34,921 nucleotides of DNA from a virus (taxonomy: Duplodnaviria > Caudoviricetes): positions 1 to 34,921 of the IMG/VR virus record IMGVR_UViG_3300032050_000433; one strand, written 5' to 3'. Position numbers and translations under genes: made by a program. Each line of letters starts with the position of its first letter. Within the stretch, counting starts at the first letter, position 1. Shown in pieces: positions 1,803 to 21,232 of this stretch. The notes below the pieces were generated by a model. It was not told the origin of the DNA, ran no database searches, and saw only the letters and a program-made list of their open reading frames with translations.

Positions 1803-1989
1803 AGCAAGAGGCCCCTCTGATGCTCACCACATCAAGCAGGGGCTCCACTATCTCTGCATACCGTTATGCAAGGACTGCCACCAGGGCAGTTTTAACGGCA
1901 TCCACGGGCAGGCTAGGATCTGGTCTGTTTACAAGAAGGACGAGATGACCGTGCTCAATGACACGGTCAAGAAGCTCAGTCTCCCTTAG
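1726..1989 (+). CDS. Ref/DUF968-like HNH-type zinc nuclease (87 aa)
   Basis: HL.RIKELPCGVC...DAHHI...IPLCKDCHQG..GIHG motif set. Confidence 0.85.
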   Translation: MNSKNLTSLDREHLARIKELPCGVCEARGPSDAHHIKQGLHYLCIPLCKDCHQGSFNGIHGQARIWSVYKKDEMTVLNDTVKKLSLP

Positions 1990-4900
1990 CCAGCTTCTTC
2001 ATGTACTGGATGTTGGATGTCAATTGGTTCTCCATCTGATCGATTGCCAGGATGGCGTCCTTCTTGGCATCTGCGTCCATAGAAGCTGAGCGGATCAGGA
2101 TCTTCATCTCCCGGAACTCCTTCATGGTCTTCTCAAGATCAAGGATGTAATCCTTGGAGGCCAACATCTTCATGTTGTCCATCAGGTAACCGGGCAACTC
2201 CTCATAGTTCATCGTCCTCTCAAGCATGTTGGAGGTGCGGACGATGGAGTCCACCGAGTTCTTGAGTTCGTAGTACGCGGTGACGTTTCCACGGGCCTCA
2301 GGATCAACTGCAAAGCGACGGATCAGAGGCATCTGCTCAAACCTTCTGGCAGGCTTGGGCGAGTCCGTGTTCATGTCGTAAACGGCATCCATCAGGTTCA
2401 TCAGATACATGCCCATCGTGCCGGTGTACCCGCTGATCAACTGATCGATCTTCATTGGGGAGACTTGCAACTCCTTTGCCATCCCCTTGGTCATCTCTCC
2501 TAAACCTTCTGCCAGACGAGACGTACCCGGCCCAACTTGGTACGCAGGTTGCAACCCTTCCAGTCCCTGCCCAACAATCGGGCGCATGGTGAAGAAGGAG
2601 AAGTTGGTCATCGTCTCCACAACAGGCATAACCGCCTGCGGGATTGGATTAAACGCAAGGGTGCTGGTCAACTGCCGAGCCATCGACTTCAGGAAGTCTT
2701 CACCCGTGTCGCTACCAAATGTGTAACCAAGGATGCGCTCAGGGATCACCTTGAACAACACACCGATTTCAAAGGGGATCGGGATCTTGACGCCCAGCGA
2801 AGGAAGAAGCCAGTAGTTGTCTCTTGTCTCCTGCTCCTGCTTCTTGTATTCCTCATCGTCATGCGTCAGCAGCCAGTAAGCGGCAGACAAGGATGCAATC
2901 ATTGCGCCGCGCACAAAGAACTGCTTCTGGATCTGCGCTGCATCACGAGCGTTCATCTGCCCCGAAGCTGCGCGGTACAGAACATCCAGGCCCTGCATGC
3001 GTGCGTTTAAGAACGGCACCGCAGCGGTAAGAATTCTTACGACAGCAGAAGATCCTTTACGGTTGAAGTTCATCACCTCAAGCGCTCTAAACAGAGCCTC
3101 TGCTTCGTTGTTGGTCTCGGCCAGCGTGCGCTTGTAGACCTCCATCCGAGTGGCTGCGTCAGATGCAGTGGAACCTTTCTCCAGCGCATCCCACAGAGAT
3201 GTAAACGGCTTAGCGCCCATCTCTGCTGCGCCCTTGAGCCCGGTGGACTTGATCTTGGCTTGCTTCCTCAGAGCCTTGCCGAACTCACGCCCGCTCTGCT
3301 CCACGTTCTGCGAGAACTCATAGCCACCCAAAATGCCTGCGTTCATCAGAGCTTGGAAGGCCGGGTCTTTGCCTGCGATAGCAGCACCAAAGTTGGTGAA
3401 GGTGTTTACCATCGGGGTCATCTTCACGCCGGAGGTAACCCATGCGGACATTGAGTCACGCATCAGGTTGGCAAGCATGAAGCCTGGGTCTTTGGTTACC
3501 AGATTGCGAAGCAAGTTCGCGGGGCCAGACAACAGTCCTATAAACGGCAGGTCAGGAATACCAAGGCTCTTGATGGCGTTGATGAAAAGCTCATCCTTTG
3601 ATTGGTACGTGACAACCTGACCGTTCTCCAGAACATCAAAGGTTCCGGCTGCGGAGGACTTGAAGCCCAGCCGCGATGCCATGCCGATGTCCATAGCCAC
3701 CTTGGCGGCTCTTTGGGCTGCGACATTCTTGACGCCAGCCTGGATCGCAGACTGAGTGTTGCGGACAATGTTTTCTAAAAAGTCATCAAGCAGGGCCTCT
3801 CCACCCTTAGCGGCTTTAGGCGGCTTGACACCAGAGATGGCTTGGAAAACCTTCGGGCCAATGGTCTCTCTGCCGTCCATCTGCCGATAGAAGGGCAGAT
3901 AGTCTGCGTGTTTACGGTACAGGTCAGCACGCTCCTGTGAGAGCACGCCGGTATCGACCATGTACTGGACGAGACCGTCGTTGTACTTGATCCACTCCTT
4001 TTGCATGGCCTCAAAGTCAATCCCCGCCTTGAGGTATGCCTTGCGAATTACTTCCGCCTCTTTGACGTCTGATGGTGTAAACAGTTTCTCTTCGTACTTG
4101 CCTTGTGGGTTTTGCATGTAGCGCGAACCACGCTTCACGCCAGCCCAGAACTGATAGTCCTGATAATGAGCCGGATCAGCAGCCAACGGGGCAAAGATCG
4201 CGGTCGGGCCTTTGATCGTGCCGTTTTGGTTGCTGATGATGGTGATACCGTTCCTGAACACAGGAATGCCACCCATCCGGTCATGCACACCCAGCGCGGA
4301 AGCGGTTAGACCAGCACCCAGGTCAGACAGCAGGGCAGCAGACTCAGCGCTGGAATCAGCAAGCAGCGCAGCACCACCCATCTTCTTGGCGCGGATCTTG
4401 TCGTAAACACCAAGCTGGTTGTAGCGGTTCAGAGCCTGGGCACGGAAGTCGGAGTAGGACGTTGGAGAGATCGCCTCCATGAGGCGCTCAACAAAGCCCT
4501 TCTCTTGACGGGAGGCAATAGTGGCAACAACCCGTGCGCGTGCGCTTGCCGGGATGTTTACGCGCAGGCTGTACTTAACACCAGCCGCTGCGGCAAATTC
4601 TTCTCTCAGTGACTTGGCCTGCCTGTACTCAAGTGGAATCAGGTTGGTGGCCGTCAGAGGTCTGCCAACACCGTCTTGGAATTTCTGCCCCTTGATGGAT
4701 ACAGAATCCTGGCGCTCATACTGATCCGGCTTTTTAGAGCCATACCGATCCTTGACGTACAGCACGACCGGGGCAGACTCAACACCTTCAGCAGAAAGCG
4801 CAGACATACGATGCCTGCCTTCATGACCAACGATGACGCCCTTCTCAATGTCCCATTCCAAGAATGGCGTTTGAGTTTCTTTGGCTATCTGATCGCGGTC

Positions 4901-7900
4901 AAGTGCCCCAGCCTCTGCCTTGAGTTCATCGGCAAACTCTTTGGACGGAGTGGTTGCGCGGACAAACTCTTCCGGGTTTACATACGCAGCAATACCGTAG
5001 GTACGCCCATCGGTGTAGCCGTATTGATCAATTAAACGCTCAATGCGCTTGTCATCCCAGGATGCTTTTTCACGCAGGCTTGGCTTTAGCTGGACAGGCT
5101 GCGCACTAACTCCAGCAACTGCTGCGCCCGCTCCTGTGGCTCCAGCCCCAGAAACAGGTTGTCCAGCGAAGACCACAGAGGGTCCTGCGGGTCGAGTACT
5201 TTCCCCTGCGAGTTGGGTGATGGCTTCGTCGTATCCGATGTCATCTGCTTTCCTTCCACTCAAATGTTGATACAGACGCTTCTCGTAGTACCAGAGAGCG
5301 GCCTGGATGTCTGCTAGTGACAGGTTAATGCCTTCGGCCTTGAGCAGGCTCTGAGTCCGCCTAGCCGTGCGGTACATGAACTCTCGGTCGGTGGATGTAA
5401 ACGGAGCCTCTTCCAGCAACTCATACTCGTTCTTGTAGATGGTGTTAGCCATCTTCTCAAGACGATGTTCAAACAAGAGAGCTTCATATGCGGGGCCAGC
5501 TTGACGCTTCGCCCTTGCCGTCCAGGCTGGCTTGTCCTTATCTTCTGCTGGCTCTTTGCGGCCCACTAACTCTTCTAGTTCAGTGTGCCAGCCAAACTCT
5601 TCATATTTGTTACGCAGCGGGATGGTTGCCGCCACCACCTCATCTCGGGTGGCATTTGGCTTATCCATCATCGCGGCAAACTTCTTGATGGACGCTTCGG
5701 TGGCCTTTGATTCCAACTGCCCACGCATGCGGTTAACCGTCCGGGTCCACCACATATCCATCGTCAGATAGCCCTCTGCGCCTTCAAGATTGGAGAAGAA
5801 TGCGCCTAGCTTTGGCCCGAAATACAATGCCGCAGCAGGTACTTTGGTATCCGCAAGATAAGAGGTATCGGGCTTTTCTCCGCGTGAACGCAGGATAGCG
5901 TTCATGTCCTTAACTGTAATCTCACGCAATAATTCATTGCGCATTCCAGTGGGACCATATTGCTTCATTAGCTGCATGACAACTGCAATGTTATTATCCA
6001 GTGCAGTTTTGCGGCGAGAACCAATATTACGCGGGTCTTTGCCCATACGAATGTCTTCGTAGAGCTTAATGGCGTTCTTTACGTTGAGAGATACTTTCTC
6101 GCCATTGGAGGTAATAGCAACCAATGCAGAGAAAACAGTTCTGGCATATGGATCTGTCTCAAGCTCTGGGAACAGCTTGCCCAGCTTCTTAACTGCCTTG
6201 GGATAGTTGTCCGAGTACCAACCTTTGCCAGTGCCGGTCCCTGCAGTTGCTTTTAGCTGGTAGCCAATCTCATCAACCATTGCCCTCGCAAGTTCTTTTT
6301 CCGAGGTCAATGAGGTATCGGTCTTGGCGATCTTGCCCTTGTTTCGGATGGTGTCTTGATTAAGTGCAAGAGCGATGGAGCGGACATCGTTAAACAACTC
6401 AATGCCACCCGGCTTGCGGACAGCATCTGTTTTGAGCCCAAGCTCCTGCATCGCTACGATGGGCTGAACTTCCATCAACCCACGAGTGGACAGAGGAACT
6501 TCACGCAAACTTTGTTTAGCCGGGGCAGCTTCTGCCTTAGCCTCCGCCTTCAGAGCACCCTTCTCAACCTTACGGAACACTTGCTCTGCGGTGACTTCAC
6601 CACCAAAGGCAGTCTTGACCGCATCAAAGAAGTTACGCAGCCGGGTCAGGATGGCTTGCATCAGGCCCGGAGGAGCCTTGTTTACATCAAAGTCCCCAAA
6701 GGCATCAGCAATTGCCTCTTCAATGATCGCGTCCATGTCGCCCTTGTAAAGCTCCATGTATGCGTCATAGCGGGACTTCTGGCCCTCCTCTAGGTCTTCC
6801 TTGTTGATGTTCTTGGTCTTAAGGTACTGATCAATCCACTTGCTCTTGGCTTGCTTTTCAAGTGCTGCCCATTGTTGTGGAGAGAAGAAGCCCAGTTCCT
6901 TCAGAGCATGGATGGACTCATGCCTCAAGGCCTGCACCGGGTTTACAGCATCCAGGGCCAGACGAACCACGCTCTGTGCGTACTCGCCTTCTGCCTTCAT
7001 GTTGTCGATCAGCTTGAGGGCAACATCCTTCAGGCCGTACTTGTTCATGATCTTCTTGAGAACCTTCTCAAGTTGATCAATCTTTTCCTGTATCTCGGGT
7101 GTGATGGGCAGCGGCTTGGCTTCTTCAGCCAGTGATGGCTTGGCTGCTCTTTCCTTTACGCCACGGACCCAGTCTTGAGCTTCTGCCCGCGTATCAAACG
7201 TGTCTTGTATGTAGTCGTCCTTGGCATCAACAACATTCCAGGCGCGTTTGATCTTGCCGTCCAAACCCTCGACTTGCGTTTGAACAATCTTGTACTTGGG
7301 GATCTGTGCTGCCGATAGCTTAGCGGCAGGCTCTGCGCGTCTAAAGCTGGTTGGCGGGTACAGCCGCATCTCTTCATTGGGGAGCTTAACTCGCCAGTTC
7401 TTTGGGAACTTCTTATCAAGGATGGCTTGTTCGCCATTGGGCGTGATAACTGCATCACCCTCCTTGAGATTGGCAACATCAGCTTGACGAGCTTGATAGT
7501 TCGCCCAAAGCTCGGGTTTCTGTTGTTTCTGCTGCTCTATAAACGCCTGCGTTTGCGAAGCGTTTTTCCACATCTCAATCAAACGACCTGGGGTGGAGCC
7601 AGTCCTGTTGCCACTGCGTAGCTTACCGTCAAGATCTTTGATGCCAGCCAAGTACGAGTTAAGCTGGTCGGTCGCGCTTTCAAATGTCATGCCCCTCTCT
7701 TCTGGGGCAAGCGTGTCCTTGATTTCCCAGTCAATACCAGATGCAGGAGTCTTCGCTTCTTCTATGTTGCGATCAAGCTCATACAACTGCCTGTTTGCAG
7801 GAGACATATCCTGCAATGACTTGGGCAACTCAACAGCAGGTTTCTGAGCAGCCGGCGCTTCAACGGGCTTCTCAGCAGCAGGCGTTTCAACAACCGGCTC

Positions 7901-9544
7901 TGTTGGCGGCGTGACGGCTTCTGCGGCAGGAGTAACTACTTCAGGCTCAACAGGCGCAGGCAGCGCAAGAGGCGGAGCTACTGCAGGCGGTGCTGCTTCT
8001 GCTCCTCCAGCAGGTTGTCTAGCATCCTCGACAGGAGGAACCACTCCTGCTGGTTCAGGGGCTCCAAGTCTTGGGGTGGTGGCTCCTGCACTGGGCTCGC
8101 CAGCCACTTGAACGCCCGCTCCACTTGGTTCGGTGATAGCCGTTCCAACATCTGCTGCTCCTTCAGTTTGCGAGGTTGGCTTGGCACCAAACATGGCTTC
8201 AATGCCAGCCAGCGCATCATCAATCTTGACCTGCGTATTGGGGTGAGCCTTAGGCCGGTACGCGGCCAAGACATCGGCCACAAAGGACGCATCCTCAGGA
8301 TTGCTCAGGTTCTTGTTGACCAGGGAATCAAAGATGGAGCCTTTCCCAAAGCCCCACTGTTTAACCACCTCGGGCGTCAGCAAGCCATCACCGATGGCCT
8401 GTTTCATCTGCTCCAGTGCAGCTTGACGCTTAGCGGCTTCTGCCTGCTCTGCTTGCTGCATTGCAACATAAGCACGATCATTCCCGATCTCTTGACTCAG
8501 CCGGTTGGCGAAGTCCATATCGGACTCACCACGGCGTTGACCGGGCAGAAGAGCTTCACTCCGCGCTGCAGCACGCTCACCCACACGACCCACAGCACCA
8601 ATAGGCGCAAGTAGACCAGCTTGGTATGCCACATTGCCATACTCAGCCAAAGCATCCGGGGTGGTCAGGGCAAGACCAGCCTGAGAGCGCTCAAGCATGG
8701 TCTGGATAACTTCGGTCGGGACTTCAGTAGCGATGCTGATCGCAGCACCCTTGCCCAACACAGTGGGCAGGCTCTCACGAGCTAAACGCTCTGCGCCCTC
8801 AACTGACCCGCGTTTCAACAGTTCTTCAACTTGCGGGCCTAGAACCTTGCCAGCAAACGTCCTGCCCAGTGGGATTAGGGATGCGGCAACATCAAGACCT
8901 GCCTGGGGCACAGCAGCCAAGCCTGCTGATGTCCTGCTGATGTCGATGGGCTTGCCTTGAGCTTGCTGCTCTTGGGCTTGACGCTGGATGTTCCCGCCAA
9001 ACTGCTGGAGCAAAGACGGGGTAAGCGCTCCCAAGATGCCACCGCCGATACCTCCAACTACTGTGCCAACTCCAGGCGCGACAGCCGTCCCCAGCTTTGC
9101 GCCAAGCAAAGAGCCAGCCTTGGCAGAACCAAGTGTTGCCAGGACGTTCGGAGCCTGCTCAGCAATAGCCAGAGGCACCTGCCTAGCGACCTCACCAGCG
9201 GCGGGCAGCAGGCCTCGTTTAGCAGCCTCTGAGACCTTCTCTAAGCTGACTTGGTCGGCGTAGGGAGACTGCTTCTGCCTCTCCAGAGCAGCCAGGGCAG
9301 CTTCTTCAGGAGATCCTGTAAACGCACCAACGGCAGTGCGGCTAGAGCCCAGCAGGCTTTCTAGCCCTTTGCCAAACGCAGCCATCACCCCCTCTTTCTT
9401 AGGGGGCTCAATGACAGGTCGAGGTTGCGGAGCGGGCTGACGGGCCAGTGTTTCTTGCTTGGCTACTCGATCAATAACATCCTGAGGGGTGTTATCAGGG
9501 AACTCAAGAAGCGACCCATCAAAAAGCTGGATGCGAATAGCCAT
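1976..9544 (-). CDS. giant polyvalent internal-virion/ejection protein (2522 aa): N-terminal Gly/Ala hydrophobic region, HExxH metallopeptidase, HhH-glycosylase-like, ParB-like and LPD38-like C-terminal domains
   Basis: Long ORF at the end of the ejection-protein cluster; motifs LRHESIHAL...EEAIADAF; GWY...GPKLGAFFSNL...LTMDMWW...QAALWYYEK; VGHEGRHRM.AL...G....PV; RDNYWLLP..VKIPIPFEIGVLFK. Confidence 0.9.
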   Translation of the reverse strand: MAIRIQLFDGSLLEFPDNTPQDVIDRVAKQETLARQPAPQPRPVIEPPKKEGVMAAFGKGLESLLGSSRTAVGAFTGSPEEAALAALERQKQSPYADQVSLEKVSEAAKRGLLPAAGEVARQVPLAIAEQAPNVLATLGSAKAGSLLGAKLGTAVAPGVGTVVGGIGGGILGALTPSLLQQFGGNIQRQAQEQQAQGKPIDISRTSAGLAAVPQAGLDVAASLIPLGRTFAGKVLGPQVEELLKRGSVEGAERLARESLPTVLGKGAAISIATEVPTEVIQTMLERSQAGLALTTPDALAEYGNVAYQAGLLAPIGAVGRVGERAAARSEALLPGQRRGESDMDFANRLSQEIGNDRAYVAMQQAEQAEAAKRQAALEQMKQAIGDGLLTPEVVKQWGFGKGSIFDSLVNKNLSNPEDASFVADVLAAYRPKAHPNTQVKIDDALAGIEAMFGAKPTSQTEGAADVGTAITEPSGAGVQVAGEPSAGATTPRLGAPEPAGVVPPVEDARQPAGGAEAAPPAVAPPLALPAPVEPEVVTPAAEAVTPPTEPVVETPAAEKPVEAPAAQKPAVELPKSLQDMSPANRQLYELDRNIEEAKTPASGIDWEIKDTLAPEERGMTFESATDQLNSYLAGIKDLDGKLRSGNRTGSTPGRLIEMWKNASQTQAFIEQQKQQKPELWANYQARQADVANLKEGDAVITPNGEQAILDKKFPKNWRVKLPNEEMRLYPPTSFRRAEPAAKLSAAQIPKYKIVQTQVEGLDGKIKRAWNVVDAKDDYIQDTFDTRAEAQDWVRGVKERAAKPSLAEEAKPLPITPEIQEKIDQLEKVLKKIMNKYGLKDVALKLIDNMKAEGEYAQSVVRLALDAVNPVQALRHESIHALKELGFFSPQQWAALEKQAKSKWIDQYLKTKNINKEDLEEGQKSRYDAYMELYKGDMDAIIEEAIADAFGDFDVNKAPPGLMQAILTRLRNFFDAVKTAFGGEVTAEQVFRKVEKGALKAEAKAEAAPAKQSLREVPLSTRGLMEVQPIVAMQELGLKTDAVRKPGGIELFNDVRSIALALNQDTIRNKGKIAKTDTSLTSEKELARAMVDEIGYQLKATAGTGTGKGWYSDNYPKAVKKLGKLFPELETDPYARTVFSALVAITSNGEKVSLNVKNAIKLYEDIRMGKDPRNIGSRRKTALDNNIAVVMQLMKQYGPTGMRNELLREITVKDMNAILRSRGEKPDTSYLADTKVPAAALYFGPKLGAFFSNLEGAEGYLTMDMWWTRTVNRMRGQLESKATEASIKKFAAMMDKPNATRDEVVAATIPLRNKYEEFGWHTELEELVGRKEPAEDKDKPAWTARAKRQAGPAYEALLFEHRLEKMANTIYKNEYELLEEAPFTSTDREFMYRTARRTQSLLKAEGINLSLADIQAALWYYEKRLYQHLSGRKADDIGYDEAITQLAGESTRPAGPSVVFAGQPVSGAGATGAGAAVAGVSAQPVQLKPSLREKASWDDKRIERLIDQYGYTDGRTYGIAAYVNPEEFVRATTPSKEFADELKAEAGALDRDQIAKETQTPFLEWDIEKGVIVGHEGRHRMSALSAEGVESAPVVLYVKDRYGSKKPDQYERQDSVSIKGQKFQDGVGRPLTATNLIPLEYRQAKSLREEFAAAAGVKYSLRVNIPASARARVVATIASRQEKGFVERLMEAISPTSYSDFRAQALNRYNQLGVYDKIRAKKMGGAALLADSSAESAALLSDLGAGLTASALGVHDRMGGIPVFRNGITIISNQNGTIKGPTAIFAPLAADPAHYQDYQFWAGVKRGSRYMQNPQGKYEEKLFTPSDVKEAEVIRKAYLKAGIDFEAMQKEWIKYNDGLVQYMVDTGVLSQERADLYRKHADYLPFYRQMDGRETIGPKVFQAISGVKPPKAAKGGEALLDDFLENIVRNTQSAIQAGVKNVAAQRAAKVAMDIGMASRLGFKSSAAGTFDVLENGQVVTYQSKDELFINAIKSLGIPDLPFIGLLSGPANLLRNLVTKDPGFMLANLMRDSMSAWVTSGVKMTPMVNTFTNFGAAIAGKDPAFQALMNAGILGGYEFSQNVEQSGREFGKALRKQAKIKSTGLKGAAEMGAKPFTSLWDALEKGSTASDAATRMEVYKRTLAETNNEAEALFRALEVMNFNRKGSSAVVRILTAAVPFLNARMQGLDVLYRAASGQMNARDAAQIQKQFFVRGAMIASLSAAYWLLTHDDEEYKKQEQETRDNYWLLPSLGVKIPIPFEIGVLFKVIPERILGYTFGSDTGEDFLKSMARQLTSTLAFNPIPQAVMPVVETMTNFSFFTMRPIVGQGLEGLQPAYQVGPGTSRLAEGLGEMTKGMAKELQVSPMKIDQLISGYTGTMGMYLMNLMDAVYDMNTDSPKPARRFEQMPLIRRFAVDPEARGNVTAYYELKNSVDSIVRTSNMLERTMNYEELPGYLMDNMKMLASKDYILDLEKTMKEFREMKILIRSASMDADAKKDAILAIDQMENQLTSNIQYMKKLAKGD
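5086..5244 (-). CDS. putative overprinted 52-aa protein nested (+1 frame) in the giant gene
   Basis: AAGGA (5251-5255) 6 nt before ATG; MTSDTTKPSPNSQGKVLDPQDPLWSSLDNLFLGLEPQERAQQLLELVRSLSS* spans the linker between the glycosylase-like domain and the KPSLR motif. Below the track size cut-off. Confidence 0.5.
   Translation of the reverse strand: MTSDTTKPSPNSQGKVLDPQDPLWSSLDNLFLGLEPQERAQQLLELVRSLSS
7978..8151 (-). CDS. putative overprinted 57-aa protein nested (+1 frame) in the giant gene
   Basis: AAGGAG (8158-8163) 6 nt before ATG; MLERLSPNQVERAFKWLASPVQEPPPQDLEPLNQQEWFLLSRMLDNLLEEQKQHRLQ is helical/amphipathic while the host frame is an A/P/G-rich linker. Confidence 0.65.
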   Translation of the reverse strand: MLERLSPNQVERAFKWLASPVQEPPPQDLEPLNQQEWFLLSRMLDNLLEEQKQHRLQ

Positions 9545-9549
9545 ATGGA

Positions 9550-11115
9550 TTACCTAACAAGGTTGCCCTGAGCATCGTACCGCGTGATGTTACCTCCGCC
9601 AACCTGCGCAGCCAATCTGTTTCGTTCCATCACAGCGGGCTCAACCATTTGCTTATACAAAGAGTTTCTCTCATTGTTATACGTCTCGTATAAGACAGAT
9701 GATCTTGGATCATCTTGTATCTGCTTTGGCGACATCGTTTTGATGTATGTCATTTGCGGATACTTGGCATCAAGTGCCTTCTCCATCTTTTCTACGGCAC
9801 TGTTTACAGTGATGTTTGCAGAGTTAATTAGATTAGCCAGCTTCATCTGATTGTTTTGCTCGGCCTGTTGCTTGAGCTTTGCTCCTTCAATTTTTAACTT
9901 TTCAGTTTCAAACTTGGCTTGCTGCTCACGATCAAGTCCACGCTGCTGGGCACTGCTCTTAGTGTTGAAGAGATTGGCCTCGGTGGCAAACTGACTTGTT
10001 GCCAAATTGGCTGCAATCTGCTGAGCATCCAAGGCGTTCTTGCGTGCCTTGGTCATCAACTCCGCAGCTTCCTTCTCAAGTGCCGCCTTGCGGTCAAACT
10101 GACCCAAAGCCTCTGCCTGTTGAGCCTGCTGCAACTTGATCTGCGCTTGATCAAACTGCAATTGAGCTTGGTTGGCTGCGCTGTCCCGGCTGGCAATTCC
10201 AGTCAAGACGCGGTCATACGCATCACGATCACCGCCCCAGCCACGGAACACACCAGCCCAACGACGGCGCTCATCATCTGAGCGGTCAACCTCACCAAGC
10301 CGTTTACGCTCTGCCTCCGCCCTTTGCAGAGCAGCGATGCCGCGTTCGTTCAGGTCAGGCATCTTGGCTCTGGCTGCCGAACGAGCCTCTTCAATGTCGC
10401 GCAATCGTTTAACGGAATCTTGCGCTTCTGTCATGATCCCTTGACCAGCGGTTGGAATGCCCTCTCCACGGAACTTGGGCTCCACCAACTGCTCTATACC
10501 GGCTGCCGGTTGTGCAGCTTGCGGAGCAGCCTGAGGTCTTGTCTGCGGTTTAGATTGCGGCTTGGACTCAGCAGCAGGCGGCGCTGCAGGTTTGGCTGCA
10601 GGTTGTGCTGCAGGTTGTGCTGCTCTCACAGGCTCTCGATACTGTGCAGCTTGAGGCGCACCCGCGCCTTCAAGAAACTCAAACTGCCGACGGCGCTCTG
10701 CATCTTCGCGCTTGCGCTTGGCTTCTGCTACACGCAACTCATCAAGGGCGACATCCTCTGACACATATGAACCAAATTCGTCACCAGCAAAACCAACAAC
10801 ACCGCCCTCTGCCATGTTTTGCATGTTGGGCGCGGGTAAACCTTCAATCCCAGCAGGCTGTGGCTGCATGGCCTGTTTAACCATCTGCTGCATCTGCTGC
10901 TGCTGCATGTTGCGCATCATGGACGGCATAGCAGCTTGGAAGTCTTCCTGAGCCTCAGGCATGCCTTGAGCGATGCCCTGAGGGGCCATCTTCTGTTTAG
11001 CTGCTTGCGCCACCTGAGCCGCGACGGTCGGCGTGTTGTCAGGCGTCACCATCTGCGCTGTTTGCATCAGCGCGGCCAGGGCCGGATCGATTGAGGATTG
11101 CTGTGCTGCGTACAT
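9550..11115 (-). CDS. putative internal virion/ejection protein (521 aa)
   Basis: Q/A/M-rich N-terminus, GIEGLPAPNMQNMAEGGVVGFA motif, coiled-coil-like body; lies between the other ejection-like genes. Confidence 0.75.
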   Translation of the reverse strand: MYAAQQSSIDPALAALMQTAQMVTPDNTPTVAAQVAQAAKQKMAPQGIAQGMPEAQEDFQAAMPSMMRNMQQQQMQQMVKQAMQPQPAGIEGLPAPNMQNMAEGGVVGFAGDEFGSYVSEDVALDELRVAEAKRKREDAERRRQFEFLEGAGAPQAAQYREPVRAAQPAAQPAAKPAAPPAAESKPQSKPQTRPQAAPQAAQPAAGIEQLVEPKFRGEGIPTAGQGIMTEAQDSVKRLRDIEEARSAARAKMPDLNERGIAALQRAEAERKRLGEVDRSDDERRRWAGVFRGWGGDRDAYDRVLTGIASRDSAANQAQLQFDQAQIKLQQAQQAEALGQFDRKAALEKEAAELMTKARKNALDAQQIAANLATSQFATEANLFNTKSSAQQRGLDREQQAKFETEKLKIEGAKLKQQAEQNNQMKLANLINSANITVNSAVEKMEKALDAKYPQMTYIKTMSPKQIQDDPRSSVLYETYNNERNSLYKQMVEPAVMERNRLAAQVGGGNITRYDAQGNLVR

Positions 11116-11124
11116 ATCTATTCC

Positions 11125-12825
11125 TCAGGAAAGGCCGAGTTCTTTCATCAACTTGCCAATGTTCTCAAACCCGGAACCAAGCTGCCCCATCGTGGATTGA
11201 TTGGCAGTGGTGGAAGCAGTCGCAACCGGCAGACCTTGCAGCATTTCCTTCTGGAATCGCAGCTTTGTAAACGGATCAAGCAACTCAGTCTCGTACTGCT
11301 TCTGGATTGCGGTGATGCCTTCTTGTTCGATGCCGCGTTGCTTCTGACCAGCCTCTTCCATCATGTCTGCAAGAGTTCTGGCCTGTTGCTGCTCAGTGTT
11401 GAACTGACCCATCGCCCGGTCATAAGCGTTGGAATACCCAGTACCAATGGCCTTGTTTTGCTCTTGCAGCAGGTTACGCTGGGTCTCGGCGTCCATGATG
11501 GCCTGACGAGAACCGCCATACGCACCCGCCTGGGCTAGTTTGCCAGCCGTGCCCATCTGCGTGATCTGAGACTGACGGCGAAGCTCTTCCAGTTGAGGCG
11601 TCAGCACAGCGTTTAGGTACGGATTCATGTACTGAGACGCGATGCCAGTAGGCCCTGTAGTTTGACCGGTGACCCCCGTAGAAGTCATGCTGGGCAGTTG
11701 ATACGCACCTTGTGCTGTAAACGACTGCCCCAGTTGTCCGGGGAAGCTCAAGCTCTCTAGGCCGCCAAACACCTTGCTCTGCAGCGGTGAGGTGCCAGCG
11801 ACAAGCGGACCCTGGTAGGCTTGGTAAGGCGTGTTGGTCAACGCAGCAGTCTTGCTGAGCATGTCGCCTACATAGGGACCAGCCCATTCAGAGATGTTCT
11901 GCTCACTAGAAGCACCCAGCGGCGCAGTTGTTCCGCCCGTCTGGAACGCAACAGCACCACCACCGGCATAGCCAGCAATGCCGCCCGGTGTAAATTTCTC
12001 CGGGTTGATCTGTTTACCTTGCTTCTTGTTGCCGGTCCTGGCCTGACGAACGCGGTCCATCATCTTGTACAGAACCTTGGCTCCAGCATCAGAGTTGCCA
12101 TTCCCAAGGTGGGAAACCACATCAGCAGGGATCACGAACTCACCGTGACTGAGCTTGGCAGGTTGGACCCCATCAATATTGCTGGGAATCTTGTCTGCCA
12201 TGCCATCAGTTTGTCCGCGCAAGTAACGAGGAGGCATCGCTTTGCCACCACGGGCATAGCCCATCAGGCCACCTTCTGCCGCGCCAGCCGACTCTGCATA
12301 GTTTGGCTCTTGCGGGACAAGAGTCCCCGGAAGAGTTGCATCAGGAAAGGTCGGTGGCGTAGTAGGTGCGGGAGCAGCAGGTGCCGCAGCAGGCGCAGCA
12401 CCATACGTCGAGTTGAAGAACTGTCGTCCCATCACCGGAGCAGCGCTTTGCGCATACGGTGTAAACACAGGCTGAGCAATGGGCGTGCGGGTGAACTGAC
12501 GATTTAAGTCAACTGATCCCTTCCAGCCCTTGGTCTTGGGCTGGTTAAGACTTGGCATCAAAAGGCCAAGGATGCCAGCGGCAGCGGCGTATTCAGTAGC
12601 CCCCGCATTGCCTGACTTGATCTTTTCAAAGAGCTTCTTGTAAGAGCCAAGAATATCTTTTGCACCGCCAGTCCAGCTTGCAAGATCCTTGTCAATGTCA
12701 TAACTGCCAGCAGGCAAAGGATCTGATGTGGGCAGAAGCGTGGAGTAGTCTAGAGCGGGATCAACATATGGCTCTCCCCCAACACTGACAACGCCGCCAG
12801 GGGTAACAACATAATCGTCTTCCAT
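11125..12825 (-). CDS. putative internal virion/DNA-transfer protein with central HGEFV domain (566 aa)
   Basis: ATG at 12825 preferred over TTG at 12831; central DGMADKIP...LSHGEFVIPADVVSHLGNG; C-terminal PYQAYQG..VAG...YMNPY...GAYGGSRQAI Q/G/A-rich region typical of podophage pilot/ejection proteins. Confidence 0.8.
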   Translation of the reverse strand: MEDDYVVTPGGVVSVGGEPYVDPALDYSTLLPTSDPLPAGSYDIDKDLASWTGGAKDILGSYKKLFEKIKSGNAGATEYAAAAGILGLLMPSLNQPKTKGWKGSVDLNRQFTRTPIAQPVFTPYAQSAAPVMGRQFFNSTYGAAPAAAPAAPAPTTPPTFPDATLPGTLVPQEPNYAESAGAAEGGLMGYARGGKAMPPRYLRGQTDGMADKIPSNIDGVQPAKLSHGEFVIPADVVSHLGNGNSDAGAKVLYKMMDRVRQARTGNKKQGKQINPEKFTPGGIAGYAGGGAVAFQTGGTTAPLGASSEQNISEWAGPYVGDMLSKTAALTNTPYQAYQGPLVAGTSPLQSKVFGGLESLSFPGQLGQSFTAQGAYQLPSMTSTGVTGQTTGPTGIASQYMNPYLNAVLTPQLEELRRQSQITQMGTAGKLAQAGAYGGSRQAIMDAETQRNLLQEQNKAIGTGYSNAYDRAMGQFNTEQQQARTLADMMEEAGQKQRGIEQEGITAIQKQYETELLDPFTKLRFQKEMLQGLPVATASTTANQSTMGQLGSGFENIGKLMKELGLS

Positions 12826-12827
12826 GA

Positions 12828-15800
12828 TCAAGCCTTTCTAGACTTCAGTTTTTCACGAGCGCCTTTGCGCTTTTCTTCGCGCTCTGCTTTGCGCACCATC
12901 GTCATTGCTTCCAGATCCGCTTCTTCTGTCCGCATCAGTTCCTGAATAAACGCTGCAAGCTCTGGAGTCATCTGCGGTGATTGTGCCTGAGGCTTAGGCG
13001 CAGGACTAGGGGCTTTGGGTTTAGACGTAGTCGCTGGCTTAGGCGTAGGAGCAGGTGTCGGCGCAGGAGTTGGAGCCGGAGGTGCTGGTGTCGGCGCAGG
13101 AGGCGGCGGAGTTGGTGCAGGCGTAGGAGCGGGGGTAGGTTCAGGCGTTGGGGGTTCAACGCTCACACGCGGCTTAACTTCAGGAGGTATTTCTGTTTTT
13201 GTATCTGGAGTGGTGTCCGTCACAGTGTCGGGTGTCGTATCCGGCGCTACATCAGGCGTGGTATCAGGAGTGGTATCTGGCGTGGTATCTGGCGTGGTAT
13301 CTGGCGTGGTGTCCGGAGCCACATCAGGCGCGGTATCCGGAGCAGTGTCCGGCGTGGTGTCCGGCGTGGTGTCCGGAGTGGTGTCCGGAGTGGTGTCTGG
13401 AGCAGTATCAGGAGTTACGTCAGGCGTAGTATCAGGAGCCGTGTCTGGCGCAACATCCGGGACTGTGTCGGGAGCCGTGTCTGGTGCGGTATCTGGTGCC
13501 GTATCAGGAGCAGTATCCGGGGCAACATCAGGTGTTGTGTCCGGTTCTGGTTGTGTGTCCGGCTGGACATCAGGCTGTGTGTCGGGCCGCGTATCCGGCT
13601 TGGGTGCGGTATCTGATGTGGCCTCAGTCTTGGGTGTTGTATCTGGAGCGGTTGTTGCCGTTACATCACCAAGCGTAATCACTTCACCTGTGTTTTGATC
13701 TGTTGCAATAGGCGTAGATAAATCAGGCGCAGTTTCAGTTGTGGTTTTTGGCGTCAAGCCCAAGTCACCCATCGTGACTTCTGCCCCAGTATCTGGATCA
13801 GTGCCTAAAACAACATTCTCCGTTGAGCTTGTTGCAGGCGCATTGCCACCAAGGACTTCATTGATGTAGTCATTGATGATCTGGTCGCTGTCAAGCTCAG
13901 TGTCACTTAGTGGCTCTAAAGTTGGGTCAATCTTTGTGGTGGTGCCAGCAGAACTAATAGTTGAGCCGGTTAAATCACCAAGAGTCAACGTATCGCCCGT
14001 ATCTGGATCTGTGGCAACCACAGTGTTGGGGTCAAATGTTGGCTCTGTTTTGACTGCGGGTTTTGTTACATCGCCAGATGAGACGGTTTGCGCTACTCCA
14101 GGCTCCGTGGCGGCTGCACCTGTTGACCCACTCAAAGTGTCAACAACACCTGCGCCCGTGGCAATACTGCCAGAAGACCCAGCGCCAATGATTGCGCCTA
14201 GACCTGTTGCAGCAGCAACTTGACTTGGGCTTACATCTGCGTATCCCTTGCCAATAGACCTTAATGACTCTCCTTGAGTTATATAGTCTGTGGCACCCTC
14301 TTCCACGCCTTCTGGAACTGTTTCTTTTGCCGCAACCTTCAAGCCGGTTGTAATGGCACTCTTGGCGTCATTTACTGCGCCGCCAACAATAATGCGTTTT
14401 TCCAGGGCGGTGCCACCGGGTATAAACGATATTGCACCAGTCACTGCCATTGATTTAACAAAAGCATTGTCTGCTTGCTTTTGCGCAATCGTGTCAGCTT
14501 CTACTTGTGTAATTTGTCCAGACTTTACGCTGTCTTTTAATAGTGCTTGCGTAGCGTCATAAGTCTCGTTTCTTGCGGACCCGCCGTTTTCCAGCATATT
14601 GGACGCCACCGAAGTAGTGACACCCAAGGTATCGGCAATTCTTTTGCTAAATTCAAGAGCTTTAGCACCAACTTGAACTGCCTTGCCTATACCAAGCAAT
14701 GGTATTTCTTGAACAATTTCAGAGCCAATTTGCCAACCTATTGCTAAAGGTTGCTTATAAATACCTGCGCCAACTGCACCTAATGTTTGCAGAACGCCAT
14801 CAGCACTTTGAATACTCTTGTTAAGGCTTGCAAGATCTTTTAAAACAGCATCAGGCGTTATGCTTGTTGCAATATCTTGTATTTTCTTAAACTCTTGCAG
14901 AGTTGTATTGTCTTTACCTACGCCGCCAAAGGCAGACGAAAACGATGTCCCCAATTGGGACACGGCATCTAATACTAGCGCTGTCGGCGTTTGGAAAGCA
15001 GTGCCCTTAGCGGCATTGGCAAGGCTCTGTGCGTTTTGACTTAGCGTTGCATATGTTGCGTCTGCACTTGGCGCGGTTCCCTGCATATCAGTAGCAGCGG
15101 CAGAATAGTCAATGCCGGAATCTGTGTCGGTCAACTTAGGCGTTGAAACAGTTCGCGCAGTTTCTGTTCGCAACGGAATTGCAGAAAGCTGTGCTGCATT
15201 TGCTGCAGTCACCCCTGGTGCGATACCTCTTCCGGCACCTGCATCCTTTGGTGCGGCAGGAGCGTAGTCCGTTGTGTAAGTCTTTGTTGAGCCGGTGATC
15301 GGATCGGTCCATGTAAACGATTTGCCAGCACCAAGCACGCTTCTGGCTGCGCGGAACGCCTCACCGAAGTCAACATACTTGTCGTATGGGCCTTGGACCG
15401 GAGCGGTTGTTTCGGTAGTTGTTTTGGCCGTAGGCGCTGTGTCCCCGCTGACAATCCGAGCCAACTCCTCAGGCGTGATGGTGGACTCTGTAACAGACGG
15501 AGCTTGTCTCAGCACATCCTCGTACAGAGCCTGCTCAACATCTGCCGTTGTGCCGGCAGGGCCAGTTGTCTTGGGAGACATGGCCTCAATCTGCTTGATG
15601 ACTGCGTCATCTGCAGTGCCATAACGGGCCTGAAGGCGGGCGGTTTCGTCGCCTGTGTCTGTCTTGCTGTTGTCTCGTGCCTGCTGGTTGTTGTACGCAT
15701 CCATCGCAGAGCCAAAGCCCTGCATGGCTGACATGATCCTTGTTGGATTACCAGACTCAACCGCTTCTTTCAGCGTCAAGGCTTTGGAAGCAAGGCCAGG

Positions 15801-16982
15801 GATTGGGCTATCCGTAAACGAACCAGCCCCCGCCAGCATCTTGGCATAGTCACCAGACGCAGCACCCTGTGCAATGTTTACAGCAGCATTGATCTCAGAC
15901 GGTGTAAACCCAGTCAGGTTGGAAATACCCGTGGTAATGCCTGCCGTGGCTCCGCCAGTCAGTGCGCTGGTCAGGACGTTGCCAAAGTCACCGGTTGCAA
16001 TCGCCGATGGGAGTGCCCGCGCACCCGCAGTGATGCCGCTTGTTACGGCTTGGCCAAGTGCAGAACTGTTTAGTTGGCTTGCAACTTGAGAGCCAGCCGA
16101 GTTTGCAAACGCAGCAACTTTTTCTGCCGCTACGCTTCCAAGCCCGCTTGCTGCTGCTGCTTGCAAAACATCTTCAAAACTGCCACCTTTTGCAGCCGTA
16201 ACTGCTGCATTAACAGCAGCACTACCAAGAGCCGATGTTGCCGCTGCAGATAACCCCTGGATACCTAGTGTGGATGCAATAGTTCCACCAATCCCAGCGG
16301 TAAATGCCGGGTTTAGCGTAGCCATTGAAGCGGCCATAGTAGCCGCTATAGCCAAGCCTTCTTTTAGGCCACTCTCAGAAACATCAAATGTTTGCGTTGG
16401 GTTACCGTAGGCATCATATGCTTGGTAAGTTGTAGTTTTACCAGACCAACTATCGCCTGTTTGTCCTATTTCCTTATTGATTTGAATATCATCACCAAGG
16501 AAATCCCTGGTGTCCGTGCCACGACCAAGATTTGCGGTTTCTGGTCGCTCGATAAAACTACGCGCTTCAGGGCTAAAAGCATTCCAATCTTCTTCGGAAT
16601 ATCCGTATTGATTGAGCGCGGGTGTTGGAGCCAGAGTCGGCGTCGGGGCAACGTAATCAGATACGAGGTCTTCGTATGTATATGCATCGGTGTCAAATCC
16701 AGGCTCTTGTGCCAGGGTTTGATAAGCGTTCTGTTGTATTGGGGCTGGAGTTGGCGCAGGGGTGGGAGCAGGAACTCCCAGACCCTTGCTTTGCATCCAA
16801 TCAACATCGCCTTGAGAGTACCCAAGGACATCTCTTAGCTGATCCCCACTTACACCAAGTTGGTTGAGTAAGTTGATTCTTGCAAGTGGGTCTGTGGTGG
16901 TTTCCCACCCGGTCGGCATGGCTGCGCCAAGACGCTCAAACTGTTCTTGAGAAGATAGCGTTTGATACAGCGGAAGAGCCAT
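12828..16982 (-). CDS. large low-complexity putative internal virion protein (1384 aa)
   Basis: Long ORF with Gly/Ala zipper regions, PDTx and PTPA tandem repeats and an FGEAFRAAR..G..FTW module; lies downstream of the nozzle/spike genes. Confidence 0.8.
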   Translation of the reverse strand: MALPLYQTLSSQEQFERLGAAMPTGWETTTDPLARINLLNQLGVSGDQLRDVLGYSQGDVDWMQSKGLGVPAPTPAPTPAPIQQNAYQTLAQEPGFDTDAYTYEDLVSDYVAPTPTLAPTPALNQYGYSEEDWNAFSPEARSFIERPETANLGRGTDTRDFLGDDIQINKEIGQTGDSWSGKTTTYQAYDAYGNPTQTFDVSESGLKEGLAIAATMAASMATLNPAFTAGIGGTIASTLGIQGLSAAATSALGSAAVNAAVTAAKGGSFEDVLQAAAASGLGSVAAEKVAAFANSAGSQVASQLNSSALGQAVTSGITAGARALPSAIATGDFGNVLTSALTGGATAGITTGISNLTGFTPSEINAAVNIAQGAASGDYAKMLAGAGSFTDSPIPGLASKALTLKEAVESGNPTRIMSAMQGFGSAMDAYNNQQARDNSKTDTGDETARLQARYGTADDAVIKQIEAMSPKTTGPAGTTADVEQALYEDVLRQAPSVTESTITPEELARIVSGDTAPTAKTTTETTAPVQGPYDKYVDFGEAFRAARSVLGAGKSFTWTDPITGSTKTYTTDYAPAAPKDAGAGRGIAPGVTAANAAQLSAIPLRTETARTVSTPKLTDTDSGIDYSAAATDMQGTAPSADATYATLSQNAQSLANAAKGTAFQTPTALVLDAVSQLGTSFSSAFGGVGKDNTTLQEFKKIQDIATSITPDAVLKDLASLNKSIQSADGVLQTLGAVGAGIYKQPLAIGWQIGSEIVQEIPLLGIGKAVQVGAKALEFSKRIADTLGVTTSVASNMLENGGSARNETYDATQALLKDSVKSGQITQVEADTIAQKQADNAFVKSMAVTGAISFIPGGTALEKRIIVGGAVNDAKSAITTGLKVAAKETVPEGVEEGATDYITQGESLRSIGKGYADVSPSQVAAATGLGAIIGAGSSGSIATGAGVVDTLSGSTGAAATEPGVAQTVSSGDVTKPAVKTEPTFDPNTVVATDPDTGDTLTLGDLTGSTISSAGTTTKIDPTLEPLSDTELDSDQIINDYINEVLGGNAPATSSTENVVLGTDPDTGAEVTMGDLGLTPKTTTETAPDLSTPIATDQNTGEVITLGDVTATTAPDTTPKTEATSDTAPKPDTRPDTQPDVQPDTQPEPDTTPDVAPDTAPDTAPDTAPDTAPDTVPDVAPDTAPDTTPDVTPDTAPDTTPDTTPDTTPDTTPDTAPDTAPDVAPDTTPDTTPDTTPDTTPDTTPDVAPDTTPDTVTDTTPDTKTEIPPEVKPRVSVEPPTPEPTPAPTPAPTPPPPAPTPAPPAPTPAPTPAPTPKPATTSKPKAPSPAPKPQAQSPQMTPELAAFIQELMRTEEADLEAMTMVRKAEREEKRKGAREKLKSRKA
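13198..13650 (-). repeat. 12-bp tandem repeat encoding PD(T/V)(T/A), roughly 35 units
   Basis: Degenerate gtatctggcgtg / gtgtccggagtg units; protein PDTTPDTAPDVAPDTT... Confidence 0.95.
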
Positions 16983-20246: not shown

Positions 20247-20750
20247 CTACCCCAAAAACAACGCACGTTCATCCCTGCGCCGCCTGACCAGTCCTGGCAA
20301 TTCCTTGCCACCACCCTTTGTCCACATCATGAATGCATCAGCGGCATCTTCAAACTCACCGCGATTATTCTTCATCCGGATGGTGCTGCGCTGATAATTT
20401 CCCAGGCCTGCGTTGAATGCAAAAGAGACCACAGCGTCAAATGCGCCTTGACGACCAACCAGATTAGGAGACAGTCGAAGAGCACCACGCTCAAAAGACG
20501 CGACATCTTCGCTGAAGAGCTCTTCAATCTCATCTTTAGTCCAGGCGCGATTGTCTTCAGGGCGCAGCGGGAACTCTTTGCGGATCATGCCTTGGTAGTC
20601 GCCTACACGAACTACAGGCAGTCTGATCTGCTCTTGATACAGAACTCTTCCCCAGCCAACCGTCCAAATTTGGGCCGGGCATAAATATGGCCTGTTCCGA
20701 TACCCTTCGTACCGGTGCATCAGCGCCGCACCGATGGGGCTCAGTTTCAC
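20247..20750 (-). CDS. endolysin, GH24 phage lysozyme (167 aa)
   Basis: EG....PYLCPA.IWTVGWG, FDAVVSFAFNAGLG, W.KGGGK.LPGLVRRR..ER.LFL; GTG start at 20750 overlaps the upstream TGA, with SD GGAG. Confidence 0.95.
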   Translation of the reverse strand: MKLSPIGAALMHRYEGYRNRPYLCPAQIWTVGWGRVLYQEQIRLPVVRVGDYQGMIRKEFPLRPEDNRAWTKDEIEELFSEDVASFERGALRLSPNLVGRQGAFDAVVSFAFNAGLGNYQRSTIRMKNNRGEFEDAADAFMMWTKGGGKELPGLVRRRRDERALFLG

Positions 20751-21232
20751 TTCTTGCTCCCACACTTGTCAAAGTGATAACGGCGCATATTCCCGCCGCC
20801 GCCTTCAACCTCGCAATGCGGGCACTTCAATACTTGCCTTTTGCCCTTACACGCCGCACTAAGTTTAGCCCGATAGTCAGGGTCAGCCAGACGCTTTGCT
20901 GCCGCCTTGACATAAAGATGTCGTTTGCGCTTGACTCCAGTTGCACCATTGGCGCTTGGTGCCTTGTTGTACAAGTCACTCAACCACATTTCAAGAAATG
21001 CAGTCTCCAGTTCTTTTGCCTCTTCAATTGAGTCGGTTTTGCAAATCACCTTAAAGTCAAAACCGCCTACGCCATACGCCTTTGCGTCTTCAGCGTAGCC
21101 TTGATAGTGCAAAAACCGACCTGTATTGATGTAGCACTTGTGATGCCGCATTCGCAGTTCAACATTTGTGGAGCTGCCAATGTACGCCCTGCCATTGTGT
21201 TTATTGACAACAGCGTACAAACCAATAGTCAT
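20747..21232 (-). CDS. free-standing GIY-YIG homing endonuclease (161 aa)
   Basis: GLY.VVN..NGRAYIGSS.N...R..HH, conserved Glu (ELETAF), YN; NUMOD3-like RAKLSAACKGK; C-terminal CPHC...MRRYHFDKC Zn module. Confidence 0.9.
   Translation of the reverse strand: MTIGLYAVVNKHNGRAYIGSSTNVELRMRHHKCYINTGRFLHYQGYAEDAKAYGVGGFDFKVICKTDSIEEAKELETAFLEMWLSDLYNKAPSANGATGVKRKRHLYVKAAAKRLADPDYRAKLSAACKGKRQVLKCPHCEVEGGGGNMRRYHFDKCGSKK

Follow-up and report, generated by a model that had tools for sequence, protein, structure and literature searches.

The window analyzed here, a stretch of 34,921 nucleotides from a virus of the Caudoviricetes, contains a frame of 57 codons that is, judging from its conservation, a real gene with its own ribosome-binding site and a predicted translation, nested in the +1 frame within a linker of a giant ejection-type gene. 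Comparison of relatives further indicates that this small gene is accessory, and that it looks like the older of the two frames, with the giant's linker as the by-product. The protein ends in a conserved tail resembling the Lon His-degron, and our tentative proposal, quite possible while short of probable, is that it uses this free C-terminal end to dock on host Lon at the N-terminal domain. What the present case contributes is the protein family and its spread over unrelated giants, together with the copies that stand free or are carried by MAGs and the lead to Lon. The features concerned are as follows.

1976..9544, minus strand: giant gene of 2522 residues, large polyvalent / ejection-type, last of the virion gene block (PF18857, phrog_9854, phrog_18222)
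2324..2857, minus strand: LPD38 domain, giant residues 2230-2407 (PF18857 match)
9550..12831, minus strand: two upstream ejection-block genes of 521 and 568 residues (the latter with a weak phrog_4287 match)
8158..8163, minus strand: Shine-Dalgarno sequence AAGGAG of the nested gene
7978..8151, minus strand: nested 57-residue gene P0001, +1 frame within the giant gene
7981..8004, minus strand: last eight codons, EQKQHRLQ, the P0001 copy of the family tail
5225..6247, minus strand: giant domain, residues 1100-1440, predicted by structure comparison to have a HhH-GPD DNA-glycosylase-like fold
5086..5244, minus strand: second nested gene P0160, 52 residues, +1 frame, preceded by AAGGA (5255-5251) and linked to the domain directly upstream

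The signal of the nested gene (8163-8158) is followed, after a spacer of 6 nt, by an ATG (8151-8149), and the frame closes with TAG (7980-7978). It lies at +1 relative to the ORF 9544-1976 and covers giant residues 465-522, where the giant frame reads through it as a low-complexity linker rich in Ala, Gly, Pro and Val. An earlier note on this DNA had described this signal, spacing, peptide and linker exactly as we find them, and the two helices it noticed appear in an AlphaFold2 model (mean pLDDT 86) as helices 7-18 and 34-56, joined by a proline loop in an acidic protein. A longer reading of 104 residues from the ATG at 8292 was rejected, as the extension is not conserved and many relatives have a stop 0-4 codons before the start. 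No sigma-70 promoter was found between 7600 and 9800, the RNA structure at the nested start is nothing unusual (z -0.72), and no RNA holder of the small gene occurs among the matches listed.

The enclosing protein matches the LPD38 family PF18857 with an E-value of 4.9e-38 (131.6 bits against a cut-off of 27), as well as phrog_9854 and phrog_18222. Its gene comes after the virion and ejection genes, the 568-residue upstream protein being weakly similar to phrog_4287, ‘DNA ejection protein’ (E 3.4e-6). We infer that it is a large polyvalent or ejection-type protein, with packaging and injection predicted from its family. Both have been proposed for LPD38 proteins (accessible text of PMC5512222 and bioRxiv 10.64898/2026.04.10.717836), in the case of phi24B gp47 on the basis of virion proteomics; gp47, as described in the accessible part of the preprint, resembles the giant in its length of more than 2000 residues, C-terminal LPD38 domain, position among late virion genes and mosaic domains. 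Unlike the situation found here, nested genes are not described in the accessible portions of these two sources: the word ‘overlapping’ is absent from PMC5512222, and the three uses of ‘overlap’ in the preprint concern cryo-EM.

Relatives of the small gene were detected in 103 cases in viral contigs, and 80 of these, picked by similarity to the peptide, were retained. The small frame is nested at +1 in a long ORF on the same strand in 79 of the 80, so the layout goes beyond chance; among 107 related loci inspected, 104 are nested likewise, two are free-standing and one is truncated by the end of its contig. The Shine-Dalgarno sequence, the start codon (an aligned ATG or GTG) and the stop are conserved across relatives, the signal being found in 60 of 64 distinct copies, with the remaining four having GGAG ahead of a GTG located nine bases further up. 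For 46 distinct sequences, pN/pS is 0.44 in the small frame, 1.91 in the giant frame and 0.90 in the third frame, and identity in the overlap is 62% for the small protein versus 38% for the giant. The most invariant positions are the wobble positions of the giant frame (27 of 57 columns). Across 87 distinct nested copies, the giant frame has no stops in the overlap where 236 would be expected, and the third frame has 218 against 210 expected. The earlier note's view of the frame as a real gene that standard annotation misses is thus borne out: relatives exist, their small frame is unbroken, it is under purifying selection, and Pfam, PHROGs and NCBIfam have no match.

The note had also set this frame apart from the other ORFs here, which it regarded as shadows; it was right that the gene is real, but not that it is the only one, given the second nested gene at 5244-5086. 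That gene stands directly after the HhH-GPD-like domain (a predicted fold; best Z 8.9, rmsd 4.2, 168 residues aligned) and is linked to it in 17 of 17 cases. Two further candidates were rejected: the +1 ORF 9042-8875 is a shadow (0.62 versus 0.88, an identity pattern opposite to that of the nested gene), and the AGGAG-ATG ORF 7455-7156 does not belong to any cluster with at least three loci.

At 50% identity, the small-protein family falls into at least 156 clusters, its best match in the three family libraries being to QLQ, from two of 56 members and not significant (E 0.0013). For the small protein, a PDB sequence search gave nothing significant, Foldseek against PDB and BFVD gave no match at E <= 0.001, and VIA-align gave generic, non-significant three-helix matches (best Z 5.0, rmsd 3.0, 55 aligned). 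The homologue P0164 has no usable match in the ESM Atlas and none in plasmids, E. coli K-12 has no match, and annotated phages yield three weak partial matches to P0001 and none to the H-ending homologues P0069 or P0048. Two scans of genome contigs, one with alignment A1 and the other with the giant's C-terminus, found nothing.

Embedded phage genes such as lambda Rz1 in Rz, T7 18.7 in 18.5 and phiX174 E in D are likewise short genes with their own start, wholly enclosed by another gene whose strand they share and to which they are read at +1. The present case differs from them in its outer genes, which encode polyvalent ejection-type proteins of 1800-3600 residues that do not align with one another, and in its small gene, which also occurs alone, is accessory and apparently has the older frame. 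The lipoprotein signal and transmembrane helix are also absent here: the 57-residue protein has no Cys, in a lipobox or elsewhere, and no hydrophobic leader, and with an outer LPD38 gene of 2522 residues it does not answer to an Rz1-type o-spanin. Literature searches, covering few subscription papers and no supplements, found no overprinted gene in a phage ejection protein; those on phage polyvalent proteins, also with few subscription papers, found no nested overlapping genes, and no such case figures in the listed titles on overprinting, nested genes or ribosome profiling.

The carriers are many uncultured aquatic phages, even ones with unrelated giant proteins. Less than 10% of the window's giant can be aligned in 36 of 83 carrier giants, and the small proteins of many such poorly aligned giants are 54-79% identical to P0001. 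The two free-standing phage copies (L169 and L170) have AGGAGG and six stops each in the would-be giant frame. A subfamily, to which MEN9514013.1 and MBU6382483.1 belong, is carried by Betaproteobacteria MAGs, on contigs of up to 618 kb, and these relatives were not found among the viral contigs. It is because of the non-aligning giants, the two solitary loci and the MAG relatives that the small frame looks older, and the earlier note's term ‘overprinted’ is probably reversed, the linker being the derived frame. De novo overprinting, with a younger and narrower nested frame, does not describe this case, in which the outer frame is unconstrained in the overlap. The small gene is judged accessory because none of 14 near-complete relatives chosen for lacking the nested copy has a full-length match elsewhere; close giants and entire near-complete records do without it.

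The family tail has the form E-[KR]-x-x-S-x-[LVI]-[HQN]-stop. Among 141 of the 150 representatives listed (nine that were spurious, fused or without an end being left out), E stands at -8 in 131 and L, V or I at -2 in 138, -3 is mostly P/Q/S/T/R and -4 mostly S/N/H, and the final residue is H in 93, Q in 45 and N in 3. P0001 retains the E, L and Q and departs at -7 and -4; it ends in LQ rather than H, as do 67 of 103 loci in its cluster. According to the accessible text of PMC11986505, Lon substrates end in x-L/I-L/I/V-H, some proven degrons have T or S at -3, and Q is outside the three best terminal residues; in the LarA–Lon crystal structure, the terminal His and penultimate Val touch a pocket of the N-domain (PMC11882793, accessible part). 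The small-protein tail resembles this degron in its hydrophobic penultimate residue. However, about one third of the family, the window's copy included, ends in Q or N rather than His, and polar residues occupy -4 and -3, with no further hydrophobic residue before the penultimate one. In the available portions of PMC10665427, PMC11882793 and PMC11986505, LarA from Caulobacter (likened by description), Smg and SulA are similarly small helical proteins with a short conserved hydrophobic-His tail, whereas the present protein is phage-encoded and nested. Smg ends in H in all 109 full-length enterobacterial orthologues (from the best 120 of 1909 matches, close enterobacterial ones), so the H/Q exchange is unseen in Smg within this enterobacterial sample. 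Homology to Smg was rejected (hhalign probability 0.3%, no sequence similarity).

A predicted complex lends weak support to docking of the small protein on the Lon N-domain, which LarA contacts in the crystal structure cited above. With residues 1-210 of E. coli Lon, a stand-in that may not be the host's, the complex scored 0.53 versus 0.00 for the best control; of 157 solved complexes 116 reached this mark, as did 2 of 215 mismatches, yet just 18 of the solved ones, and both of these mismatches, did so with a score of 0.60 or below, and such passes are more often wrong than right. The runs share at least 41% of contacts with a partner pLDDT of at least 58, and the score may reflect memory of the solved LarA–Lon complex.

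According to the explanation we prefer, an older accessory gene would have been absorbed into the linker of a giant ejection-type gene, so that one late message would serve for the translation of both proteins. The product, modeled as a small acidic helical hairpin, might mimic a Lon degron with its hydrophobic-then-H/Q/N end, and, as a decoy or modulator, could keep Lon from attacking the poorly folded ejection proteins before these are packaged. The small protein thus possibly acts on host Lon via its conserved tail, and the Betaproteobacteria MAG subfamily fits a host-side target. A precedent is T4 Pin (PinA), a phage Lon inhibitor (accessible text of PMC9697503), with which the role of shielding phage proteins from Lon would be shared. 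However, no PHROG match connects the two proteins, and Pin is visible from 3 min after infection (same source), whereas the small gene belongs to the late virion genes. A degron could also merely render the small protein short-lived. The conserved body residues Q9, E11, A13, E36 and W37 are not accounted for by a tail-only contact.

The small gene's independence from the giant and its accessory status would also suit an accessory protein with a different host target, in which the hairpin binds another host protein and the tail enters some other C-terminus-reading pocket or is itself a degron. This is a serious, if doubtful, possibility. The conserved residues of the helical body and the Q-ending copies, a poor fit to Lon, speak for it, and the net charge is negative in 130 of 137 representatives, which makes a protein more plausible than DNA as the target. 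However, no search supplied a candidate, and the sole complex tried, that with Lon, gained weak support.

All phage copies with visible surroundings lie within the ejection block, the solitary copy in L170 being flanked by an ejection gene of phrog_4287 and by the ejection-type gene that comes next. Together with the proposed packaging and injection of LPD38 proteins, this would be consistent with a minor component of the virion, or an ejected protein, that is synthesized late along with the ejection proteins, is taken up into the particle non-specifically and enters the cell together with them. We consider this rather improbable, since close relatives dispense with the gene, the protein lacks a segment of membrane type, whether hydrophobic or Gly/Ala, and the MAG-borne relatives stand apart from viral contigs.

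The earlier note had cast the protein as a chaperone, inhibitor or packaging partner of the enclosing giant. The two share a message, the nested gene consistently follows the giant's N-terminal region (giant residues 262-755), and the domain linkage of the second nested gene indicates that such pairing exists in these giant genes. A dedicated partner is nevertheless improbable: carriers vary greatly in the giant sequence on either side of the gene, many of their giants hardly align with that of the window, five giants with a related N-terminus (L118, L139, L141, L142 and L149) lack the gene, and it tracks with no giant segment, N-terminal type or upstream ejection-gene type. The idea is left unsupported by a small gene that looks older and accessory. 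Finally, a shadow frame maintained by giant-protein or RNA constraints is very improbable and, from sequence comparison, largely refuted: the initial 80 loci were indeed selected by resemblance to the peptide, but all 15 nested copies located via the giant's C-terminus are intact, giant-frame wobble positions are the most invariant while giant pN/pS is high, free-standing copies are known, and true shadow ORFs give the opposite identity pattern.

Taken further than the Lon proposal itself, and less likely than it, the family would consist of widespread but unannotated degron-mimic Lon modulators, moving among unrelated giants as an in-frame cassette (Shine-Dalgarno sequence, ORF, stop and a silently stop-free -1 frame) and shielding ejection proteins of the same message. 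Freshwater Betaproteobacteria would carry a chromosomal version, and linkers would be slots for several hidden genes, some cognate to an adjacent enzyme domain. The Lon lead, according to which the phage protein would imitate the C-terminal Lon degron, is cheap to test. More broadly, linker-like stretches of giant phage ejection proteins can be by-products of older, well-conserved small genes, and this small-gene family, skipped inside intact giant genes, offers a large natural series for studying the origin of overlapping genes by absorption rather than de novo.

The record is linear, 34,921 bases long and 56% complete, and carries a minus-strand gene block (tail, lysis, virion) that ends in the giant gene; this gene is preceded by a 521-aa gene and by a 568-aa gene that weakly matches phrog_4287 'DNA ejection protein'. 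The giant contains LPD38, described as a mark of phage polyvalent proteins, for which packaging and injection are supposed (PMC5512222); in phi24B, an LPD38 protein has been proposed as the ejection protein (bioRxiv 10.64898/2026.04.10.717836). Elsewhere on this strand, a GIY-YIG homing endonuclease gene (20747-21232) lies immediately upstream of the endolysin gene (20247-20765), the ORF ends overlapping by 19 bases; a 1295-aa gene of the tail region (26332-30219) has four repeat-like phrog_12240 matches; and a 1384-aa ORF (12828-16982), between the virion and ejection genes, is without Pfam or PHROG match and shows strong GC and AT skew at 13001-14000.

9544-1976, minus strand: giant gene, 2522 aa, with LPD38 at residues 2230-2407.
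8163-8158, minus strand: AAGGAG, followed after a 6-nt spacer by the ATG at 8151 that opens a 57-aa frame.

The 57-aa frame is +1 relative to the giant, across giant residues 465-522, and its coordinates, peptide and AAGGAG-6 nt-ATG opening agree with those quoted in an earlier note. A scan of viral contigs with the peptide yielded 103 relatives, of which 80 were kept (53-100% identity); in 79 of these the frame lies +1 within a long ORF of the same strand, and the remaining one, L017, is cut by the contig end. The comparison of both frames that the earlier note had proposed finds the small one constrained: for 46 distinct ungapped sequences, the small frame has a pairwise identity of 62% and the giant frame one of 38%, with pN/pS of 0.44 and 1.91, respectively, and 0.90 in the third frame. 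The most invariant columns are wobble positions of the giant frame (27/57), and 60 of 64 distinct copies have an SD-like motif ahead of the start. Because these loci had been selected by likeness to the peptide, a second sample of 80 further loci was fetched independently of it, by the giant's C-terminal 622 residues. The gene is present in 13 of the 65 loci with a complete 5' end (three being near-copies of the window) and in 2 of the 15 with an open 5' end, the remaining loci giving no trace of it. As refutation, the earlier note had named a lack of homologues together with a frame broken by stops in related genomes; besides the 79 nested relatives, all 15 giant-selected copies are intact, +1 and within the giant. 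A profile search gave 156 clusters at 50% identity, and distant members reached by five single queries were nested in 8/8, 13/15 (the other two free-standing; truncated L182 left out) and 4/4 loci. This brings the total to 107 loci, some redundant: 104 nested, two free-standing and one cut. Two database proteins (P0056 and P0146) seem to start in a giant-like frame and finish in the small frame, most likely through indels in the assemblies. The small ORF is a real gene of an unannotated family, and it is most improbable that the frame is not a gene.

Both frames are kept open where they overlap. Over the last 50 codons, stops were counted in 87 distinct nested copies: 0 in the giant frame, where the codon usage of the giant itself predicts 236, and 218 in the third frame, where 210 are expected. 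Pyrimidine-ending codons before AA, AG or GA end in T in 0 cases and in C in 251 within nested copies, with 111 and 713 elsewhere. The free-standing homologues each have 6 stops in the frame that a giant would use.

L169, 4400-4576: free-standing homologue with an AGGAGG; the gene immediately before it is a 423-aa ejection gene.
L170, 8001-8177: free-standing homologue with an AGGAGG; a 423-aa ejection gene likewise comes immediately before it.

The L170 copy lies between two ejection-type genes, upstream of a giant, and its record (98% complete) holds no second, nested copy. Of 83 carrier giants, 36 align with less than 10% of the window's giant, and many of the small proteins in these 36 share 54-79% identity with the window copy. 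One carrier giant (L161) is DarB-like. The small frame looks older than the giant's linker frame. A pre-existing small gene would have been absorbed into giant linkers, whose sequence would be its by-product; absorption would be cheap, since a third-position T-to-C change is always silent and clears all -1 frame stops.

The predicted structure (pLDDT 86) has two helices, one at residues 7-18 and a long one at 34-56, separated by a proline loop, with no significant match in family, sequence or fold searches. The protein is acidic in 130 of 137 representatives, so DNA binding is an unlikely reading of its generic homeodomain-like fold matches. A tail whose residues keep a constant spacing to the stop is the clearest functional signal. 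Among the 141 of 150 listed representatives that were retained (nine were dropped as spurious, fused or missing the end), E occupies -8 in 131, K/R -7 in 122, S -4 in 84 and L/V/I -2 in 138; the C-terminal residue is H (93), Q (45) or N (3). Q endings, mostly CAG, associate with GC-rich loci (mean 0.53 vs 0.43) and may result from a bias of the giant frame towards G in its first codon position.

Ejection proteins must remain poorly folded before packaging. For this reason, and because phage T4 encodes a Lon inhibitor (PMC9697503), we tentatively favour a small protein that would act as a Lon-directed decoy or modulator. The Lon degron is described as a hydrophobic-His C-terminal end (PMC11986505), and the Lon activator LarA makes use of such an end (PMC10665427), its final two residues touching a pocket of the Lon N-domain (PMC11882793). 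A complex predicted for E. coli Lon 1-210 and the small protein, from the family alignment, scored 0.53 (runs 0.58, 0.28 and 0.53; best of three controls 0.00), with contact agreement of at least 41% and partner pLDDT of at least 58; as a caveat on this score, a like complex has already been solved. The mark for a complex is reached by 116/157 solved complexes and 2/215 mismatches, but at scores up to 0.60 by just 18/157 solved complexes and both mismatches; the prediction lends weak support. Against a Lon role, the window copy ends in Q, outside Lon's top three terminal residues as reported (PMC11986505), family positions -4 and -3 are polar, and Smg ends in H in 109/109 full-length enterobacterial orthologues among the matches listed. 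Action on another host target is nearly as likely as the Lon role, and a virion passenger seems unlikely.

The earlier note had inferred a chaperone, inhibitor or packaging partner of the giant. We searched 47 of 52 negative control records whole, together with three positive controls, all recovered; the 47 (14 at least 90% complete) gave no full-length match in a loose first look that may miss distant copies, and weak matches covering just 20-30 positions in four. Giant sequence flanking the nested gene on both sides is widely divergent among carriers, no 150-residue giant window is common to all of them, and presence of the gene tracks with neither giant N-terminal type nor upstream gene type. 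Judged by sequence, the gene is accessory and independent of the giant, which speaks against a dedicated role as chaperone or packaging partner and makes any partnership with the giant improbable.

Across 164 distinct giant genes, 378 alternative-frame ORFs have an SD, 374 of them in +1. The alternative frame is more identical than the giant frame in 7/23 clusters; in the small gene's cluster (103 loci), identity is 0.55 vs 0.34. Other nested +1 ORF families that look protein-like and have strong SDs occur in the giants of L053, L143, L104, L097, L079, L136 and others, some better conserved than the giant frame (clusters C0, C1, C3 and C5) and some about equal or lower (C7, C8 and C12). The window's giant holds a second nested gene, directly after one of its domains.

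5244-5086, minus strand: second nested +1 gene, 52 aa, in one of the clusters with higher alternative-frame identity.
6247-5225, minus strand: HhH-GPD DNA-glycosylase-like domain of the giant, by predicted fold.

Over codons 15-45 of 15 distinct sequences, identity in the second gene is 0.59 vs 0.44 in the giant frame. Of 131 complete giants, 17 have it, always immediately after this domain, which is present in 23; in the other six, whose domain copies are divergent, a nested ORF of another kind fills that slot. The domain model (best Z 8.9, rmsd 4.2, 168 aligned) matches nearly only the HhH-GPD DNA-glycosylase superfamily in its top 26 rows, with no result from Foldseek or sequence searches and no Pfam match above cut-off. 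Domain and nested protein resemble a putative effector with its cognate partner, possibly an effector-immunity pair.

A 58-aa subfamily ending LLN or MLN (P0164, P0176, P0190 and P0205), linked to the family at E about 2e-5 by the close-member profile alone, is present in Betaproteobacteria MAGs and was not found in viral contigs. One of its sequences lies on 659 contigs of up to 618 kb, and the subfamily is probably chromosomal.

Nested +1 genes are of a known kind, as with Rz1 in Rz and phiX174 E in D; our literature search found no report of them within polyvalent or ejection genes. The small gene family would be a new variation on the known nested arrangement, with a candidate Lon lead that is testable.
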